The notes beneath the pieces are model-generated. The model searched no databases, had not been told where the DNA came from, and was given only the letters and a program-made list of their open reading frames with translations. From the NCBI GenBank assembly GCA_963675665.1, contig OY776510.1:4928001-4992000 (forward strand): a DNA stretch of 64,000 nt, given 5' to 3'. The stretch is from Spirochaetia bacterium (GTDB taxonomy: Bacteria; Spirochaetota; Spirochaetia; UBA9216). Positions 639 to 40,606 of the stretch are shown piece by piece. The translations under genes were made by a program, and so were the position numbers. Position 1 is the stretch's first letter. Each line of letters starts with the position of its first letter.

Positions 639-700
639 ATCTAACTCCTATAAAAAGTCAACCACAAGCTAAAAATATAAGCTTATGATCTAGTCGGATA

Positions 701-1813
701 TCAACCGACCATTACAGCTTCCCATGCTGCTGCCTGCATTTCCCTGTATTCTTTTCTAAAAGCCATTTTCATCGGATCAAACGGCTCTCTGGTTTTTAAA
801 ATTGTATATACCAAAGTGCTCATCTTGCGGGCGGCAGCTATTACACTCTTACCCGAGCCTTTCTGCTTCTTCATCGCTGCATACTTCGTCATTATTCGGT
901 ACGTCCCGGTCTTCTTTTGCATACGAACCATTCCCATCACCATCTGTACGAAGGCTGTCCTCAGTTCTACAGGCCCACGCTTTGTTATATGTCCATGATG
1001 TATTGTCATATTTGAGTTCTGCACCCATGGCACAAGCCCGGCGTTTGCTGCATATTTCTTCGCACTATCATATCTGCCGATATCGTCTGTATAGGCTCTT
1101 ACTGTTGCTGCTGTTATTAGACCCACGCCTGGTATTGTCTGCAGAAGCTCAACATCTTCATCGTCCTCCACAAGCTCAGCCAAAACCTTTTCAAGCTGCT
1201 TGACTTGCGATGCCTGATTATCTATCATATCCAGTAACGGTATTACCGTTTTGGCAGCGCTTCCGTAAAAGTCGTGGTCCTCGAGACCGTTCAGGATTCG
1301 CTGCCTTTCTTTTTTACTCTGCAGCTGTCCGCGTTTGGTCTCTATTCCATAACCAAGTAATAAGCCATGCACCTGGTTCTTTAACGACACAACAGATTTT
1401 ACCAGTATCGACCTGGATTTCAGCACCCTTCGAATATCCTCACTCTCTTGGGAACATAATATCGATTCAGGCAGCATGTCTTTCTCAAGAAACTCCGCCA
1501 GGGTGCGTGCATCATGTTTGTCTGTCTTTTTTACAGATTCATTCACTACCTTGAATTTCAAAGTATTCACTACAACCACTTCGACTCCAGCCTTTAACAG
1601 TTTATTGCGGAAATAACGGGCATTCCCGGTTGTTTCCACCGCTGCTCTCAACTCATATTCCTCTTCACAATATTCATCCAGCATTTTCAGAAATGCTCCA
1701 TAACCATTTCCGCTGGTCGGATACATTCCCAATTGATCAATTTTTCGGTCTTCACTTAAAAGGCATACTGTAAACTGCGTTTTGTGAAGATCCACGCCAA
1801 TACTCATCTTCAT
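701..1813 (-). CDS. IS110-family DEDD recombinase/transposase
   Basis: GVDLHK, VETTG and KTDKHDA (DEDD RuvC-like motifs); LQTIPGVG and GLVPWVQNS C-terminal Tnp domain. Confidence 0.96.
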   Translation of the reverse strand: MKMSIGVDLHKTQFTVCLLSEDRKIDQLGMYPTSGNGYGAFLKMLDEYCEEEYELRAAVETTGNARYFRNKLLKAGVEVVVVNTLKFKVVNESVKKTDKHDARTLAEFLEKDMLPESILCSQESEDIRRVLKSRSILVKSVVSLKNQVHGLLLGYGIETKRGQLQSKKERQRILNGLEDHDFYGSAAKTVIPLLDMIDNQASQVKQLEKVLAELVEDDEDVELLQTIPGVGLITAATVRAYTDDIGRYDSAKKYAANAGLVPWVQNSNMTIHHGHITKRGPVELRTAFVQMVMGMVRMQKKTGTYRIMTKYAAMKKQKGSGKSVIAAARKMSTLVYTILKTREPFDPMKMAFRKEYREMQAAAWEAVMVG

Positions 1814-1848
1814 GTTCTATCTCCAATAGTTTGAAGCAGTGCCTATAC

Positions 1849-2001
1849 GGTGAATTGTTCCATTCTCCTATCCGGTCTCGCAGACCATTGAATGTTTCGG
1901 TTACGGCTCTTCAATCTCCTAAACGGTCTCGCGGACCAGTAAAAATGTCGAACAGTAACCTTACTGCCTCAATTAAAGTTAAGGCAGTATATCAATTCAC
2001 C
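1849..2001 (-). ncRNA. Putative bridge RNA of IS110 copy 1
   Basis: Reverse complement of 22723-22875; closing stem GGTGAATTG/CAATTCACC encloses two GGTC(C/T)GCGAGACC hairpins flanked by target- and donor-matching segments. Confidence 0.7.
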
Positions 2002-2026
2002 AGCTCATGAAGACTTTTTATCATTC

Positions 2027-2169
2027 CTCCTATAAAAAGTTTCCGCATGGATGCGGGTTTTAAGAGGTGAAGTAGTAAATCTAAACTGCGTAGCAGTTTA
2101 AACTGCATTGCAGTTTAGATTTACTACTTCAAAATGATAAAATAACATGGAAGTTATTTTATCATTCCT
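2027..2169 (-). repeat. Short multi-hairpin element with IS110-like ends (candidate MITE), copy A, in tandem with IS copy 1
   Basis: On the minus strand it begins AGGAATGATAAAA (same as the IS left end) and ends ACTTTTTATAGGAG (same as the IS right end); three hairpins, two with (A/T)TCCAT loops. Confidence 0.75.
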
Positions 2170-8388: not shown

Positions 8389-8508
8389 CTCCTATAGAAA
8401 CTCGACTTTAATCGTAAGCCATGGATGGCCGGTTGCAGAAGTGAAGTTTTCAAACAAAGTTTGGAAACTTCAAAATGTTAAAAATACATGGATGTATTTT
8501 TAACATTC
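8389..8508 (-). repeat. Multi-hairpin element copy B, directly upstream of metH
   Basis: GAATGTTAAAAATAC-atccat-GTATTTTTAACATT, TTGAAGTT...AACTTCAC, GCC-atccat-GGC, ending TTTCTATAGGAG before the ATG. Confidence 0.7.
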
Positions 8509-21284: not shown

Positions 21285-22510
21285 AGTATATATACCTTTA
21301 CAGCCGTTCCTTTATTAATACCTTCCGAATTGCGCGGGATCCGCACCGTTCCGAAAGCTTCGGCAAGCATTGTTATCAGTCCCGATTCTCCATGAACAGG
21401 AACCGCCATATTTCCATCTGCAGTATGCTCCAGTTTGACAAACTGCCAGGTTTCACGCCCCGGGGCCCCGCTTATATTTTCCGTCAGAACGGCCTCCGTA
21501 TAGGTCTCAGGCGGCGGCACGGACCGGTTAAGCAGACAGACCAGATGCCGGACGATTATGCCGAAAACTACAAGCGCCGAAACCGGATGCCCGGGCAGGC
21601 CGATTACAGGCTTACCCGCAGCGTTCGCGATAATGGTGGGTTTTCCCGGTTTGAAAGCAATTCCGTGGCATAATACCCCGGGAGAACCAAGCGCCGTTAT
21701 CGCCTTAAGCGAGTAATCCTTCACGCCTACTGATGAGCCGCCTGACAGCAGCACAATATCGCTGTTCCTGTGGCACTCACGAAGAACGTCAGTCAGCGCC
21801 TGTTCATCATCCTGTATTATAAAACGATCGTATACATCACAGTCCAATTGTTCGACTGCGGCTGAGATAGTATAGGTGTTAATATCCCGGATCTGACCCA
21901 ATGCCGGCTCCTCGTCCGGACCGACAATCTCGTCGCCGGTTGAGATGACGGAAACTACCGGTTTGCGGTAAACTTCAACTTCGGTACAGCCTATTGAAGT
22001 AAGAACTCCCAAATCGGCCGGTTTTAGTTTTTTCCCGGCTTTTAGAACAACCGTTCCTTTTACAATATCATCCCCGATATTTATTACATTTTCCCTGACG
22101 GTTGCCGGCCTGAAAATGGAAATCTCGTCATCGGTAAGTTTTTCAATATATTCAATCATGACTACAGCGTCGGCCCCGTCCGGAACCATGCCGCCGGTAG
22201 GGACGTAGACAGCTTCACCCGGTTTCAGTTCCATTCCGGCAGTCTGTCCCATAGAAACCTCGCCTTTCAGCTGCAGAAACGCAGGCAGGGTTTCCGAAGC
22301 CCCTGAAACATCCGATGCTTTAACGGCATAACCGTCTTTTGTCGAACGTCTGAATGCGGGCACTGTCTCAGCAGATACCGCATCGGCTGCAAGAAACCTT
22401 CCCGAAGCATTTTCAACCGGTATTATTTCAATATCCAGGGGATATGTTTTAAAGTTCTCTTCCAACAGCTTTTTTGCTTCCGCTATTGTAACGACACTTA
22501 GTAACTCCAT
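21281..22510 (-). CDS. moeA: Molybdopterin molybdotransferase
   Basis: STKDGYAV, STGDE, SGGSSVG, KPGKPT, GLPGHP. Confidence 0.92.
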   Translation of the reverse strand: MELLSVVTIAEAKKLLEENFKTYPLDIEIIPVENASGRFLAADAVSAETVPAFRRSTKDGYAVKASDVSGASETLPAFLQLKGEVSMGQTAGMELKPGEAVYVPTGGMVPDGADAVVMIEYIEKLTDDEISIFRPATVRENVINIGDDIVKGTVVLKAGKKLKPADLGVLTSIGCTEVEVYRKPVVSVISTGDEIVGPDEEPALGQIRDINTYTISAAVEQLDCDVYDRFIIQDDEQALTDVLRECHRNSDIVLLSGGSSVGVKDYSLKAITALGSPGVLCHGIAFKPGKPTIIANAAGKPVIGLPGHPVSALVVFGIIVRHLVCLLNRSVPPPETYTEAVLTENISGAPGRETWQFVKLEHTADGNMAVPVHGESGLITMLAEAFGTVRIPRNSEGINKGTAVKVYIL

Positions 22511-22616
22511 ATTTTATCTCCTGTTTTTTAATAAAACATATCAGCCGATGAAAAACAAGAGCTCCGTTTTTTATTTCTTTATTTTACACATTGTATTATA
22601 TTTATTATATATAGAG

Positions 22617-22697
22617 AGGGAATTATGAAAAATCTTCCATGAGTTTTCATAATTAACTACACTGATCTGCCGCTTATGGCGGAATATATTATAGGAG
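22617..22697 (+). repeat. Degenerate multi-hairpin element copy D, in tandem with IS copy 2
   Basis: AATTATGAAAAATC-ttccat-GAGTTTTCATAATT, AACTACAC, TCTGCC-gcttat-GGCGGA, ending TTATAGGAG. Confidence 0.5.
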
Positions 22698-22722
22698 GAA
22701 TGATAAAAAGTCTTCATGAGCT

Positions 22723-22875
22723 GGTGAATTGATATACTGCCTTAACTTTAATTGAGGCAGTAAGGTTACTGTTCGACATTTTTACTGGTCCGCGAGACCG
22801 TTTAGGAGATTGAAGAGCCGTAACCGAAACATTCAATGGTCTGCGAGACCGGATAGGAGAATGGAACAATTCACC
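22723..22875 (+). ncRNA. Putative bridge RNA with target- and donor-binding loops
   Basis: Target loop CATTTTTACT (22777-22786), hairpin, TAGGAG (22803-22808); donor loop CATTC (22830-22834), hairpin, ATAGGAG (22853-22859). Confidence 0.72.
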
Positions 22876-22910
22876 GTATAGGCACTGCTTCAAACTATTG
22901 GAGATAGAAC

Positions 22911-24023
22911 ATGAAGATGAGTATTGGCGTGGATCTTCACAAAACGCAGTTTACAGTATGCCTTTTAAGTGAAGACCGAAAAATTGATCAATTGGGAATG
23001 TATCCGACCAGCGGAAATGGTTATGGAGCATTTCTGAAAATGCTGGATGAATATTGTGAAGAGGAATATGAGTTGAGAGCAGCGGTGGAAACAACCGGGA
23101 ATGCCCGTTATTTCCGCAATAAACTGTTAAAGGCTGGAGTCGAAGTGGTTGTAGTGAATACTTTGAAATTCAAGGTAGTGAATGAATCTGTAAAAAAGAC
23201 AGACAAACATGATGCACGCACCCTGGCGGAGTTTCTTGAGAAAGACATGCTGCCTGAATCGATATTATGTTCCCAAGAGAGTGAGGATATTCGAAGGGTG
23301 CTGAAATCCAGGTCGATACTGGTAAAATCTGTTGTGTCGTTAAAGAACCAGGTGCATGGCTTATTACTTGGTTATGGAATAGAGACCAAACGCGGACAGC
23401 TGCAGAGTAAAAAAGAAAGGCAGCGAATCCTGAACGGTCTCGAGGACCACGACTTTTACGGAAGCGCTGCCAAAACGGTAATACCGTTACTGGATATGAT
23501 AGATAATCAGGCATCGCAAGTCAAGCAGCTTGAAAAGGTTTTGGCTGAGCTTGTGGAGGACGATGAAGATGTTGAGCTTCTGCAGACAATACCAGGCGTG
23601 GGTCTAATAACAGCAGCAACAGTAAGAGCCTATACAGACGATATCGGCAGATATGATAGTGCGAAGAAATATGCAGCAAACGCCGGGCTTGTGCCATGGG
23701 TGCAGAACTCAAATATGACAATACATCATGGACATATAACAAAGCGTGGGCCTGTAGAACTGAGGACAGCCTTCGTACAGATGGTGATGGGAATGGTTCG
23801 TATGCAAAAGAAGACCGGGACGTACCGAATAATGACGAAGTATGCAGCGATGAAGAAGCAGAAAGGCTCGGGTAAGAGTGTAATAGCTGCCGCCCGCAAG
23901 ATGAGCACTTTGGTATATACAATTTTAAAAACCAGAGAGCCGTTTGATCCGATGAAAATGGCTTTTAGAAAAGAATACAGGGAAATGCAGGCAGCAGCAT
24001 GGGAAGCTGTAATGGTCGGTTGA
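22911..24023 (+). CDS. IS110-family DEDD recombinase/transposase
   Basis: Protein identical to 701..1813. Confidence 0.96.
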   Translation: MKMSIGVDLHKTQFTVCLLSEDRKIDQLGMYPTSGNGYGAFLKMLDEYCEEEYELRAAVETTGNARYFRNKLLKAGVEVVVVNTLKFKVVNESVKKTDKHDARTLAEFLEKDMLPESILCSQESEDIRRVLKSRSILVKSVVSLKNQVHGLLLGYGIETKRGQLQSKKERQRILNGLEDHDFYGSAAKTVIPLLDMIDNQASQVKQLEKVLAELVEDDEDVELLQTIPGVGLITAATVRAYTDDIGRYDSAKKYAANAGLVPWVQNSNMTIHHGHITKRGPVELRTAFVQMVMGMVRMQKKTGTYRIMTKYAAMKKQKGSGKSVIAAARKMSTLVYTILKTREPFDPMKMAFRKEYREMQAAAWEAVMVG

Positions 24024-24084
24024 TATCCGACTAGATCATAAGCTTATATTTTTAGCTTGTGGTTGACTTTTTATAGGAGCAAAA

Positions 24085-24702
24085 ATGCAGGTGTCTTTTA
24101 AAAAGATACTCCTGAGTATGCTGCTGTTTGCTGCGGGAAGTGCAACTTTTTTATCCGGAGACGATACTACGAATAATTACCTTTCATTATACGATTTCAA
24201 TAGCATGAATAACAATTCACAGTACGAATGGCAGGATTTTACTGATCAGGTAATGGGAGGGAAATCGGAAATATCCACATCCCTGCTTCAGGAGGACGGG
24301 GAGTTTTTTCTGCGGATGGAAGGCGAAGTGTCTTTAAAAAACAACGGAGGCTTTATTCAGACCCGGCTTCAACTGAGCAGGGGATTTGGAACCCTGGATG
24401 CTTCTGATTATGACGGAATCAGATTGCTGGTAAGGGGAATAGAGTCCGGCTACTACCTGTTTTTCAGAACAACAAGCACCATTCTGCCTTGGCTGTATTA
24501 CTCGGCCGGTATCGATGTAAAACCCGGATGGCAGGTAATCGACATACCATGGTCGGCAGTAACCAAAGGAGCTTACGGTTCAATGGGAAATTTCAAAACA
24601 TCAAAACTGAAAAGTATAGCTGTTGTTGCTTTCGGACGGGAATTTACAGCTCAGATTGATCTTAAACGAATAGGTTTATATAAAAAGGATCCTGAACTTT
24701 AA
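24085..24702 (+). CDS. CIA30-family protein with a signal peptide
   Basis: TDQVMGGKS...VSLKNNGGF...YDGIRL. Confidence 0.85.
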   Translation: MQVSFKKILLSMLLFAAGSATFLSGDDTTNNYLSLYDFNSMNNNSQYEWQDFTDQVMGGKSEISTSLLQEDGEFFLRMEGEVSLKNNGGFIQTRLQLSRGFGTLDASDYDGIRLLVRGIESGYYLFFRTTSTILPWLYYSAGIDVKPGWQVIDIPWSAVTKGAYGSMGNFKTSKLKSIAVVAFGREFTAQIDLKRIGLYKKDPEL

Positions 24703-40479: not shown

Positions 40480-40606
40480 AGGAATGATAAAATTACATCC
40501 GTGTAATTTTATCATTTTGAAGTTTGAAAATTAAACTGCGTCACAGTTTAATTTTCAAACTTCACATCTTCCATCTGCCTTCCATGGCAGGAAGTTTTTA
40601 TAGGAG
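40480..40606 (+). repeat. Multi-hairpin element copy E with IS110-like ends, upstream of trmJ
   Basis: AG-GAATGATAAAATTAC-atccgt-GTAATTTTATCATT, TTGAAGTTTGAAAA...TTTTCAAACTTCAC, CTGCC-ttccat-GGCAG, TTTTTATAGG-AG. Confidence 0.78.

Follow-up and report, generated by a model that had tools for sequence, protein, structure and literature searches.

The window analysed here is a stretch of 64,000 nucleotides (nt) from a Spirochaetia bacterium (GTDB lineage Bacteria; Spirochaetota; Spirochaetia; UBA9216), taken from positions 4,928,001 to 4,992,000 of the forward strand of contig OY776510.1 in GenBank assembly GCA_963675665.1. On its forward strand it carries a 1382-bp insertion sequence (IS) of the IS110 family (22698..24079), which is delimited by 15 genomic copies and by an empty site that skips 1382 bases, and which is classified by the Pfam domains of its open reading frame (ORF). 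This ORF is the recombinase gene (22911..24023, forward strand, 370 amino acids), and its product matches DEDD_Tnp_IS110 (PF01548, 9e-18) and Transposase_20 (PF02371, 1e-17); non-coding DNA extends for 213 nt upstream of it and for 56 nt downstream. On the left, the IS abuts a host Shine-Dalgarno sequence (SD), AGGAG (22693..22697, forward strand), and the junction reads TATAGGAG|GAATGATAAAAAG, with the IS beginning at 22698. On the right, the junction reads TTGACTTTTTATAGGAG|CAAAA-ATG, with the last base of the IS at 24079; the spacer CAAAA and the ATG (24080..24087, forward strand) form the right half of the target, and the ATG at 24085 is the start codon of a gene encoding a CIA30-domain protein (24085-24702, from the ORF list and Pfam). 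The right-end terminus TATAGGAG (24072..24079, forward strand), which is present in the 15 copies and in related loci, supplies a new SD to this downstream gene. At a distance of 5 nt from each end, the IS carries a perfect 10-bp subterminal inverted repeat, namely ATAAAAAGTC on the left (22703..22712, kept in 118/160 related loci) and GACTTTTTAT on the right (24065..24074, conserved in the family), both given on the forward strand. A second IS copy lies on the reverse strand at 645..2026, immediately behind a miniature element, and an ATG at 638-636 follows it after 6 nt; because this copy is inverted, a direct-repeat search of the window found none. The initial annotation of this DNA, made from the sequence alone, had placed both copies in an SD just before a host start codon, and this was confirmed for both. 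The interval that it gave, 22696..24087, covers the IS (22698-24079) but extends on the left over the final AG of the SD and on the right over the start codon.

We searched the genome, which is one contig of 5.15 Mb, and found 15 copies of the IS that are 99.9-100% identical. All 15 are inserted at WWWAGGAG | N5-7 ATG, and each element ends in TATAGGAG; the left flanks are variable up to WWW, and AGGAG is then invariant in 15/15 copies. The spacer to the ATG is 6 nt long in 12 copies, 5 nt in two and 7 nt in one, and the downstream ATGs open ORFs of 93-729 codons that are co-oriented with the recombinase gene in every case. Since AGGAG is common to the host left flank and to the right end of the element, we infer that the crossover (the core) lies inside the SD, most likely at its last two bases, AG. 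As a background, we used the 1104 unoccupied WWWAGGAG sites of the same genome, with an ATG at 5-7 nt and an ORF of at least 80 codons as the criterion. Of these sites, 205 (19%) have such an ATG and ORF, and at this rate the chance of finding 15 out of 15 would be 0.19^15, or ~1e-11. In the strictest subsets of the background, selected by left motif or by A-richness (n>=30), the fraction is at most 0.54. A 6-nt spacer is present at 43% of the SD+ATG-like background sites versus 12/15 of the IS sites.

To obtain an empty site, the contigs of four public runs (X1, X3, X4 and X5) were compared with 22400-24400. In a 24.7-kb contig of X5, a run whose organism carries a different label, 22688 is joined to 24071 with 1382 bases skipped; 9 letters at the joint fit either side, and there are 0 differences in the 289 and 330 flanking bases. 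These results show a precise insertion without duplication, whose presence differs between near-identical strains. Orthologues of the CIA30 gene in the same genus are 68-69% identical and were not used for the empty-site comparison. The joint of right end to left end that is expected in a circular form was not present in the contigs of X1, X3, X4 and X5, and contigs drop rare forms.

A profile of 26 relatives of the recombinase matched the solved IS621 and ISCro4 recombinases (E ~6e-22). Residues D8, E60, D98, D101 and S267, which are invariant in 26/26 relatives, align with D13, E62, D104, D107 and S243 of the IS621 chain, and these correspond to the published catalytic residues D11, E60, D102, D105 and S241 on the assumption that the chain has two extra N-terminal residues. 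Among 8000 scored candidates, 2451 protein relatives were found at E<=1e-30. At E<=1e-40 the recombinase was not found in 10 genomes of the same family (five of them of the same genus), and overall it was found in 3 of the 60 related genomes searched; a megablast search of the element against plasmids gave no match. We collected 160 related loci with 55-88% amino acid identity, 80 from species-representative genomes and 80 from metagenomes. Both ends are kept almost unchanged in 118 of them (left GAATGATAAAAAG, right TTGACTTTTTATAGGAG), and the 42 loci without both recognisable ends were left out. By record title the related loci come from several phyla, the titles naming Spirochaetota, Desulfobacterota, Syntrophales and others. 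With few exceptions, the flanks of these loci have the form xxxAGGAG | element | N5-9 ATG; at 56/65 such sites outside this genome, the ATG has at least 60 codons after it, or an ORF that stays open to the end of the available DNA. Multi-copy sets are present on megabase contigs of an Oceanispirochaeta metagenome-assembled genome (MAG) and of a Syntrophales MAG, and thus the SD+ATG pattern is not a binning artefact.

The 213-nt left end is predicted by minimum free energy (MFE) folding to form an outer stem (22723-31 / 22867-75) that encloses a 5' stem-loop (22736-61) and two arms, all on the forward strand. Each arm is an internal loop with a GGUC-N5-GACC hairpin cap; the target-loop arm (22763-22825) comes first and is followed by the donor-loop arm (22830-22864). 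The MFE is -62.3 kcal/mol with a z of -4.3, and 0/200 shuffles equal it. In an alignment of 76 distinct left ends, compensatory changes were found at 15/26 consensus pairs. They include CG to UA in 20 sequences in the stem of the first arm, GC to AU and UA to CG in the hairpin capping the target loop (GGTC-CGCGA-GACC, 22787..22799, forward strand; columns 106-110/118-122), and, in the second hairpin, which caps the donor loop (22838..22850, forward strand; columns 160-163/171-174), GC to AU in 28 sequences and UA to CG in 19. In addition, relatives have G-U pairs in the 5' stem-loop that speak for the recombinase-sense strand. The body of the predicted bridge RNA (22723..22875, forward strand) agrees, through its outer stem, with the region that had been proposed to fold. 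The loops also lie where they had been placed, the first as CATTTTTACT (22777-22786), a hairpin (22787-22799) and GTTTAGGAG (22800-08), and the second as CATTC (22830-34), a hairpin (22838-50) and ATAGGAG (22853-59). The assignment of the first loop to the target and of the second to the donor is borne out by covariation with the flanks and with the element ends, and the stems show compensatory changes.

The 3' side of the target loop, G-TTTAGGAG (22800..22808, forward strand), has the same sense as the left flank and would pair with the bottom strand. AUUG follows it at 22809-12 (AAUG in most relatives), and the family form is G-NNN-AGGAG-AAUG. The guide changes with the flank among relatives: UAC is found with flank TACAGGAG in the Oceanispirochaeta element, CAA with AAAGGAG in the Syntrophales element, AAC with GACAGGAG at locus L165, AGGGGAG with AGGGGAG at L194, and CCGCGGAG with GCGCGGAG at L175. 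In 48 unique guide/flank pairs comprising 22 guides, 92/144 cells matched at positions -8 to -6 versus 49.9 after shuffling (maximum 68), and 0/5000 shuffles reached the observed value. By position, the matches were 10/48 at -8, 38/48 at -7 and 44/48 at -6, which indicates that about 7 nt are read on the left side.

The 5' side of the target loop, CATTTTTACT or CAT-TTTT-A-CT (22777..22786, forward strand), would pair through CU with the core AG, through UUUU with the spacer and through CAU with the ATG, the A serving as a hinge. Its family form is CAU + 5 nt + (C/A/U)U, the reverse complement of which is core + 5 nt + ATG. We examined 93 unique guide/site pairs; 24/119 left ends were not parsed, a few parsed rows with a mis-called hairpin were filtered by the length of the 3' side, and sites with <12 nt of right flank were dropped. 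CAT guides account for 80 of the 93 pairs (34 distinct guides), and 78/80 of their sites have an ATG 4-11 nt after AGGAG, with spacers of 5 nt at 12 sites, 6 nt at 41, 7 nt at 11 and 8 nt at 10. The remaining 13 pairs (12 guides) are non-CAT, and 11/13 lack an ATG; at L168, one of the two with an ATG, the guide is one base longer, still ends in CAT, and the spacer is 6 nt. The CAT-less guides belong mostly to one clade, with flanks that are CACGGAG|GCACAGAG-like repeats, and their 5' sides match their own right flanks (7/8 at L181, for example). The association of CAT with ATG, together with the match of CAT-less guides to their right flanks, identifies the 5' side as the right-half guide. Copies at sites unrelated to SD+ATG had been named as one observation that would count against this targeting; all 15 copies, and about 78/80 homologous sites with the same guide type, are at SD + ATG.

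We then compared guides and spacers in two registers; three of the 80 pairs, with no ATG or with an ATG at <5 nt, were dropped from these permutation tests. In the ATG-aligned register, 198/385 positions matched versus 160.7 +/- 6.3 in shuffled guides (0/5000 shuffles reach this value), and 34/79 matched at non-A guide positions versus 19.2 (1/5000). In the core-aligned register, the signal was weak overall (160/385 versus 146.8, reached by 119/5000 shuffles) and not significant at non-A positions (21/79 versus 18.2). As a shift control, the ATG-aligned register was slid by 1-3 bases, and this gave 119-174 matches overall and 6-21/79 at non-A positions. Since the signal is found when guides are aligned on the ATG and is weak when they are aligned on the core, the right guide appears to be bipartite, anchored on the ATG and tolerant of a gap next to the core, with the extra bases of the spacer presumably looped out. 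The contiguous ideal target with a 5-nt spacer that had been derived from the loop matches the site of the copy at 22698 at 13/14 positions and that of the copy at 645 at 9/14 plus one G-U, as had been counted, but it does not hold as a rule, fitting 2/15 sites in this genome and 12/80 family-wide, and the pairing is ATG-anchored instead.

As a separate observation on the target loop, both target guides are changed in L170, L171, L175, L176, L180-L183, L191 and L194-L196, and there is no start codon at these sites. These loci belong to a clade that record titles and contig names suggest to be Treponema from insect guts, the elements are inserted in the CACGGAG|GCACAGAG-like repeated sequence, and at L171 a second copy lies directly in tandem.

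The 5' side of the donor loop, CATTC-A-AT (22830..22837, forward strand), is complementary to GAATG, the first 5 nt of the left end (22698..22702, forward strand), and covaries with it. The 3' side, ATAGGAG (22853..22859, forward strand), has the same sense as the right-end terminus, and this guide and the ...TATAGGAG end are both conserved in the family, where the donor loop reads CAUUC-A-AU / hairpin / (G/A)AUAGGAG-AAUGG. Left ends that start with GCACG, GTATG, GCATG, GAACG and GAGTG are accompanied by guides CGUGC, CAUAC, CAUGC, CGUUC and CACUC, respectively; the donor guide follows the changed left end exactly in 8/13 variant combinations, and 23/24 GAATG ends have the guide for GAATG. One RNA base lies between the core-side dinucleotide and the paired stretch of the donor loop, which fits the idea of a hinge. 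When the two ends are abutted, the -35-like hexamer TTGACT (24063..24068, forward strand), 17 nt and the -10-like hexamer TAAAAA (22704..22709, forward strand) follow one another, and by analogy with IS621, whose junction promoter it resembles, we regard this pair as a candidate circle-junction promoter.

Taken together, these results suggest that this IS110-family element is probably active, its movement being a site-specific recombination guided by a bridge RNA whose target loop is programmed for translation-initiation regions. The initial annotation had proposed an RNA-guided recombinase aimed at such regions, and the genome-wide and family-wide comparisons support it. In the mechanism that we propose, an RNA would be produced from the left end, and the 5' side of its target loop would be bipartite: CU would pair with the AG core that ends the SD, a one-base hinge would follow, and a segment of 7-8 nt ending in CAU would pair with the start codon and the 4-5 bases that precede it, while 0-4 extra bases of the host spacer would be looped out. 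The donor loop would read the circle junction ...ATAGGAG|GAATG.... With the crossover inside the SD and a right end that reads TATAGGAG, the downstream gene would keep an SD-spacer-ATG arrangement in the same orientation as the recombinase gene. No terminator-like site was found between the recombinase stop codon and the downstream gene, so read-through could keep that gene expressed. Insertion would also regenerate the target, which would allow tandem insertions. We further propose, more tentatively, that a hinged guide of two parts, one holding the crossover dinucleotide in the SD and the other anchored on the ATG at a variable distance, would let the element recognise a functional class of sites and rebuild each site that it uses, and that this may underlie spread across phyla with little harm to the host, tandem stacking and the mobilisation of miniature elements; as part of the same proposal, which may well turn out otherwise, a mixture of IS110 and IS1111 features would suggest a separate lineage.

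Several points weigh against this interpretation. The CAT/ATG association comes from few independent events, as the non-CAT guides are mostly from one clade. A contiguous guide implies a 5-nt spacer, and the looped-out geometry, for which there is no direct precedent on the DNA side, must be assumed. Pairing with the spacer is loose, at ~2.5 of 5 matches, and shuffling of guides leaves differences in base composition between genomes, to which the shift control is a partial answer. In this genome the left guide is UUU versus TAT at -8 to -6 in 10/15 targets, and thus -7 is often mismatched. In the donor loop, the first base of the core is left unpaired by the 5' side (AU versus AG). No match was found when 22500-24300 was searched against Rfam at E<=1. 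Among the public runs listed for the region none is an RNA run, and the case for the RNA itself, its transcription included, is computational.

One alternative is that the RNA or the protein reads the SD side only, as ~7 nt of NNAGGAG in A/T-rich surroundings, that the ATG is present because such sites are mostly real ribosome-binding sites (RBSs) and because intragenic insertions are selected against, and that the CAU is structural or inherited. This would account for a spacing to the ATG that varies from 5 to 9 nt and for the modest spacer matches; moreover, the RBS-like fraction of background sites climbs with A/T richness, up to 0.54, and the MFE structure would allow the CAU to pair, within its own loop, with the AAUG of the 3' side. 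However, 15/15 would be improbable even at 0.54 per site (~1e-4), and SD-only recognition combined with A-richness was rejected as a sufficient explanation, as no subset of n>=30 exceeds that fraction. Selection cannot yield covariation between guide and spacer that is anchored on the ATG (0/5000 shuffles, with a peak only at shift 0). In addition, the retargeted relatives retain the 3'-side AAUG and lose the CAU, which shows that the CAU is not needed for the fold. We therefore consider recognition of the SD side only to be unlikely.

The window also contains miniature elements that resemble MITEs (miniature transposable elements with inverted repeats), and a second alternative is that the real target is this resident 110-nt repeat, just as a repetitive extragenic palindrome (REP) is for IS621, RBSs being affected only since the repeat ends in an SD. 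One MITE-like element with IS termini lies at 2027..2167 on the reverse strand, and its 3' TATAGGAG is the target used by the IS copy at 645..2026; profile matches were also found at 8389-8508 (reverse strand) and 40482-40606 (forward strand). The element is 108-141 nt long and consists of GAATGATAAAA, three hairpins and TTTTTATAGGAG, the first hairpin being built of the IS subterminal repeat. A profile of nine copies gave 74 matches in the genome, 35 of them full length. The 3' end is reached by 53 of the 74 and is followed directly by the IS in 5 and by another miniature copy in 8; among the remaining 40, an ATG lies 3-9 nt downstream in 38. Tandem arrays of five (1652333-1652783) and of three (2973058-2973266) are present in the genome, and the stretches 1652333-1652895 and 2973058-2973366 are examples of places outside the window where the miniature element occurs. 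In favour of the repeat as the target, 5/15 IS copies lie directly after a miniature element, whose end, TATAGGAG, is the commonest target. On the other hand, 10/15 copies have no adjoining miniature element detected, and the profile had no match in the flanks of the 160 related loci, which are still at SD + ATG, and we regard targeting of the repeat as very improbable. The miniature element was found in 5/5 genomes of the same genus that were searched, with 3-48 matches in the same AGGAG| ... |N-ATG setting, and the IS itself was not found in these five; a search of Rfam with the miniature element gave only microRNA-like noise below threshold. From its sequence, the miniature element looks like an older non-autonomous derivative that carries the donor ends of this IS family. 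Repeats of this family, which had not been noted before, lie in the 5' leaders of dozens of genes of the genus.

It is scarcely credible that the left-end structure is instead a regulatory element in the 5' untranslated region (UTR) of the recombinase mRNA and that the protein alone selects the sites: the structure does lie in the 5' UTR, and a long-range alternative pairing in it shows compensatory changes, but the loop bases track the flanks and the element ends across the family, as described for the experimentally proven IS621, ISEc21 and IS1111.

Bridge RNA recombinases have been described for IS621 and IS622 (Durrant 2024, PMC11208160; Hiraizumi 2024, PMC11208158), and the bridge-RNA-guided element proposed here resembles IS621, as it is described there, in the following respects. 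Both recombinases have DEDD RuvC-like and Tnp domains with the same five catalytic residues, and both elements insert without target duplication at a core common to donor and target. Both have a non-coding RNA (here a predicted one) in the left end with the target loop ahead of the donor loop, and in each loop both strands are read with an overlap at the core, which in the mirrored frame is CT. A short stretch after the 3'-side guide resembles the handshake guide of IS621, and a -35/-10 pair, here a candidate one, is split between the two ends. In contrast to IS621, which was compared by its published description, the guide order is reversed in both loops: the guide for the top strand (right) is on the 5' side and that for the bottom strand (left) on the 3' side. 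If the loops are read on the other strand, they look like those of IS621, in that a long guide ends in the CU core and a short guide is followed by a few bases. The reading in the initial annotation, which follows the scheme of established IS110 bridge RNAs, needs correction on this point, as the guide order is the reverse of that published for IS621 and ISEc21. Unlike IS621, the element would have a long guide that is bipartite with a variable gap on the DNA side, and it has subterminal inverted repeats. Its target would be a functional class of sites, SD + ATG, rather than a REP as described for IS621, and the left half of its donor copies the left half of its target, so that the target would be regenerated. 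The two recombinases are distant (E ~1e-15 to 1e-22), with similarity mainly in the C-terminal domain.

According to PMC11187229 (Siddiquee 2024), which describes the seekRNAs of IS1111-type elements and of ISEc21, RNAs of the IS1111 type carry their two strand matches in the opposite order to those of the IS110 type, and subterminal inverted repeats are a distinguishing trait of IS1111-type elements. Like IS1111-type elements in that description, the element has subterminal inverted repeats and a top-strand match 5' of the bottom-strand match, and like seekRNA elements of IS1111 and ISEc21 it has a junction promoter (a candidate here) and natural reprogramming among relatives. Unlike IS1111, where the long non-coding region is downstream of the recombinase gene, it has this region upstream, as in ISEc21, which is of the IS110 type. 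The element thus mixes features by which the two types are separated in PMC11187229.

IS900 of Mycobacterium avium subsp. paratuberculosis is a member of the IS110 family that inserts in one orientation into CATGNNNNNNTCTCCTT, is rarely found inside genes and is described as targeting translation-initiation signals (PMC8141618). The sequence CATGNNNNNNTCTCCTT is the reverse complement of SD-N6-CATG. A paper by Doran in 1997 reportedly deals, by its title, with the targeting by IS900 of translation-initiation signals for the hed gene. Like IS900 as described, the element inserts between an SD and a start codon in one orientation (15/15 copies and 78/80 family sites with CAT guides). The host signals used by IS900 serve an ORF, hed, that is opposite to the transposase, whereas here the recombinase gene is co-directional with the host gene in 15/15 copies. 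Unlike IS900, which was compared by description only, the element has a right end that rebuilds the SD. In the literature searched, we found no bridge-RNA reading of the IS900 target and no paper that links bridge-RNA guides to SD + ATG, the nearest being the IS900 motif and the title of the Doran paper. Targeting of translation initiation by an IS110-family element is, from the published descriptions of IS900, not new. What the present analysis adds is a right guide that appears to be anchored on the ATG and to tolerate a gap, a guide order that is reversed, and a right end that rebuilds the SD together with the tandem miniature elements. A miniature non-autonomous derivative of an IS110-family element is known in MITEPpu9, which derives from ISPpu9 (PMC12288879). 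Like MITEPpu9 as described there, the miniature element has IS110-family ends and is present in several copies, some adjoining the IS. Unlike MITEPpu9, it is 108-141 nt long with three hairpins, carries no known small RNA gene, lies at ribosome-binding sites, forms arrays of up to five, and is present in genomes where the IS was not found.

The targeting proposed here would show a way to aim an RNA-guided recombinase at a motif that lies upstream of most genes in bacteria that use SDs, while leaving the motif undestroyed. A crossover inside the SD together with a replacement SD would explain why the record titles span so wide a range of hosts and why tandem arrays occur. If the pairing next to the core truly tolerates a gap, this would bear on the design rules of bridge recombinases and on the prediction of off-targets in genome engineering. 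It would also offer an RNA-guide explanation for the targeting of translation signals by IS900, which has been known for decades. In addition, the element may offer a natural means of placing cargo immediately upstream of start codons with the translation signals kept.

Several further observations were made at the locus. In the left end, the 3' arm of the 5' stem-loop, at ~22754-22760, can pair with ~22885-22891 (columns 74-80 / 210-215), just upstream of the SD of the recombinase gene itself, and five of six pairs show compensatory changes in 7-30 sequences; judged from these changes, it may be an alternative or closing helix that couples folding of the bridge RNA to translation of the recombinase. 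At 22700-22732, the ATG in the conserved GAATGAT end opens an ORF of 10 codons (MIKSLHELVN); the host SD is only 2 nt ahead of it, a spacing that looks too short for normal initiation. Ahead of the IS, 10 nt separate the targeted SD from a preceding terminator-like hairpin with a T-rich tail (22666-22683). This hairpin is similar to the third one of the miniature element, although the profile called no miniature copy there. In the comparison with public runs, a contig of X1 and X3 from elsewhere in the same organism aligns with 22695-22730 and at 24060, where a left-end-like stretch of 36 nt (4 differences) and the final 20 nt of the right end are linked through 6 other letters, and this may be a deletion derivative or another miniature form. 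In X5, the sample with the empty site, a loose end at 22723 shows that a different family member is present, with the first 26 nt of the left end the same and the sequence beyond them continuing like the Syntrophales-type element (L048).

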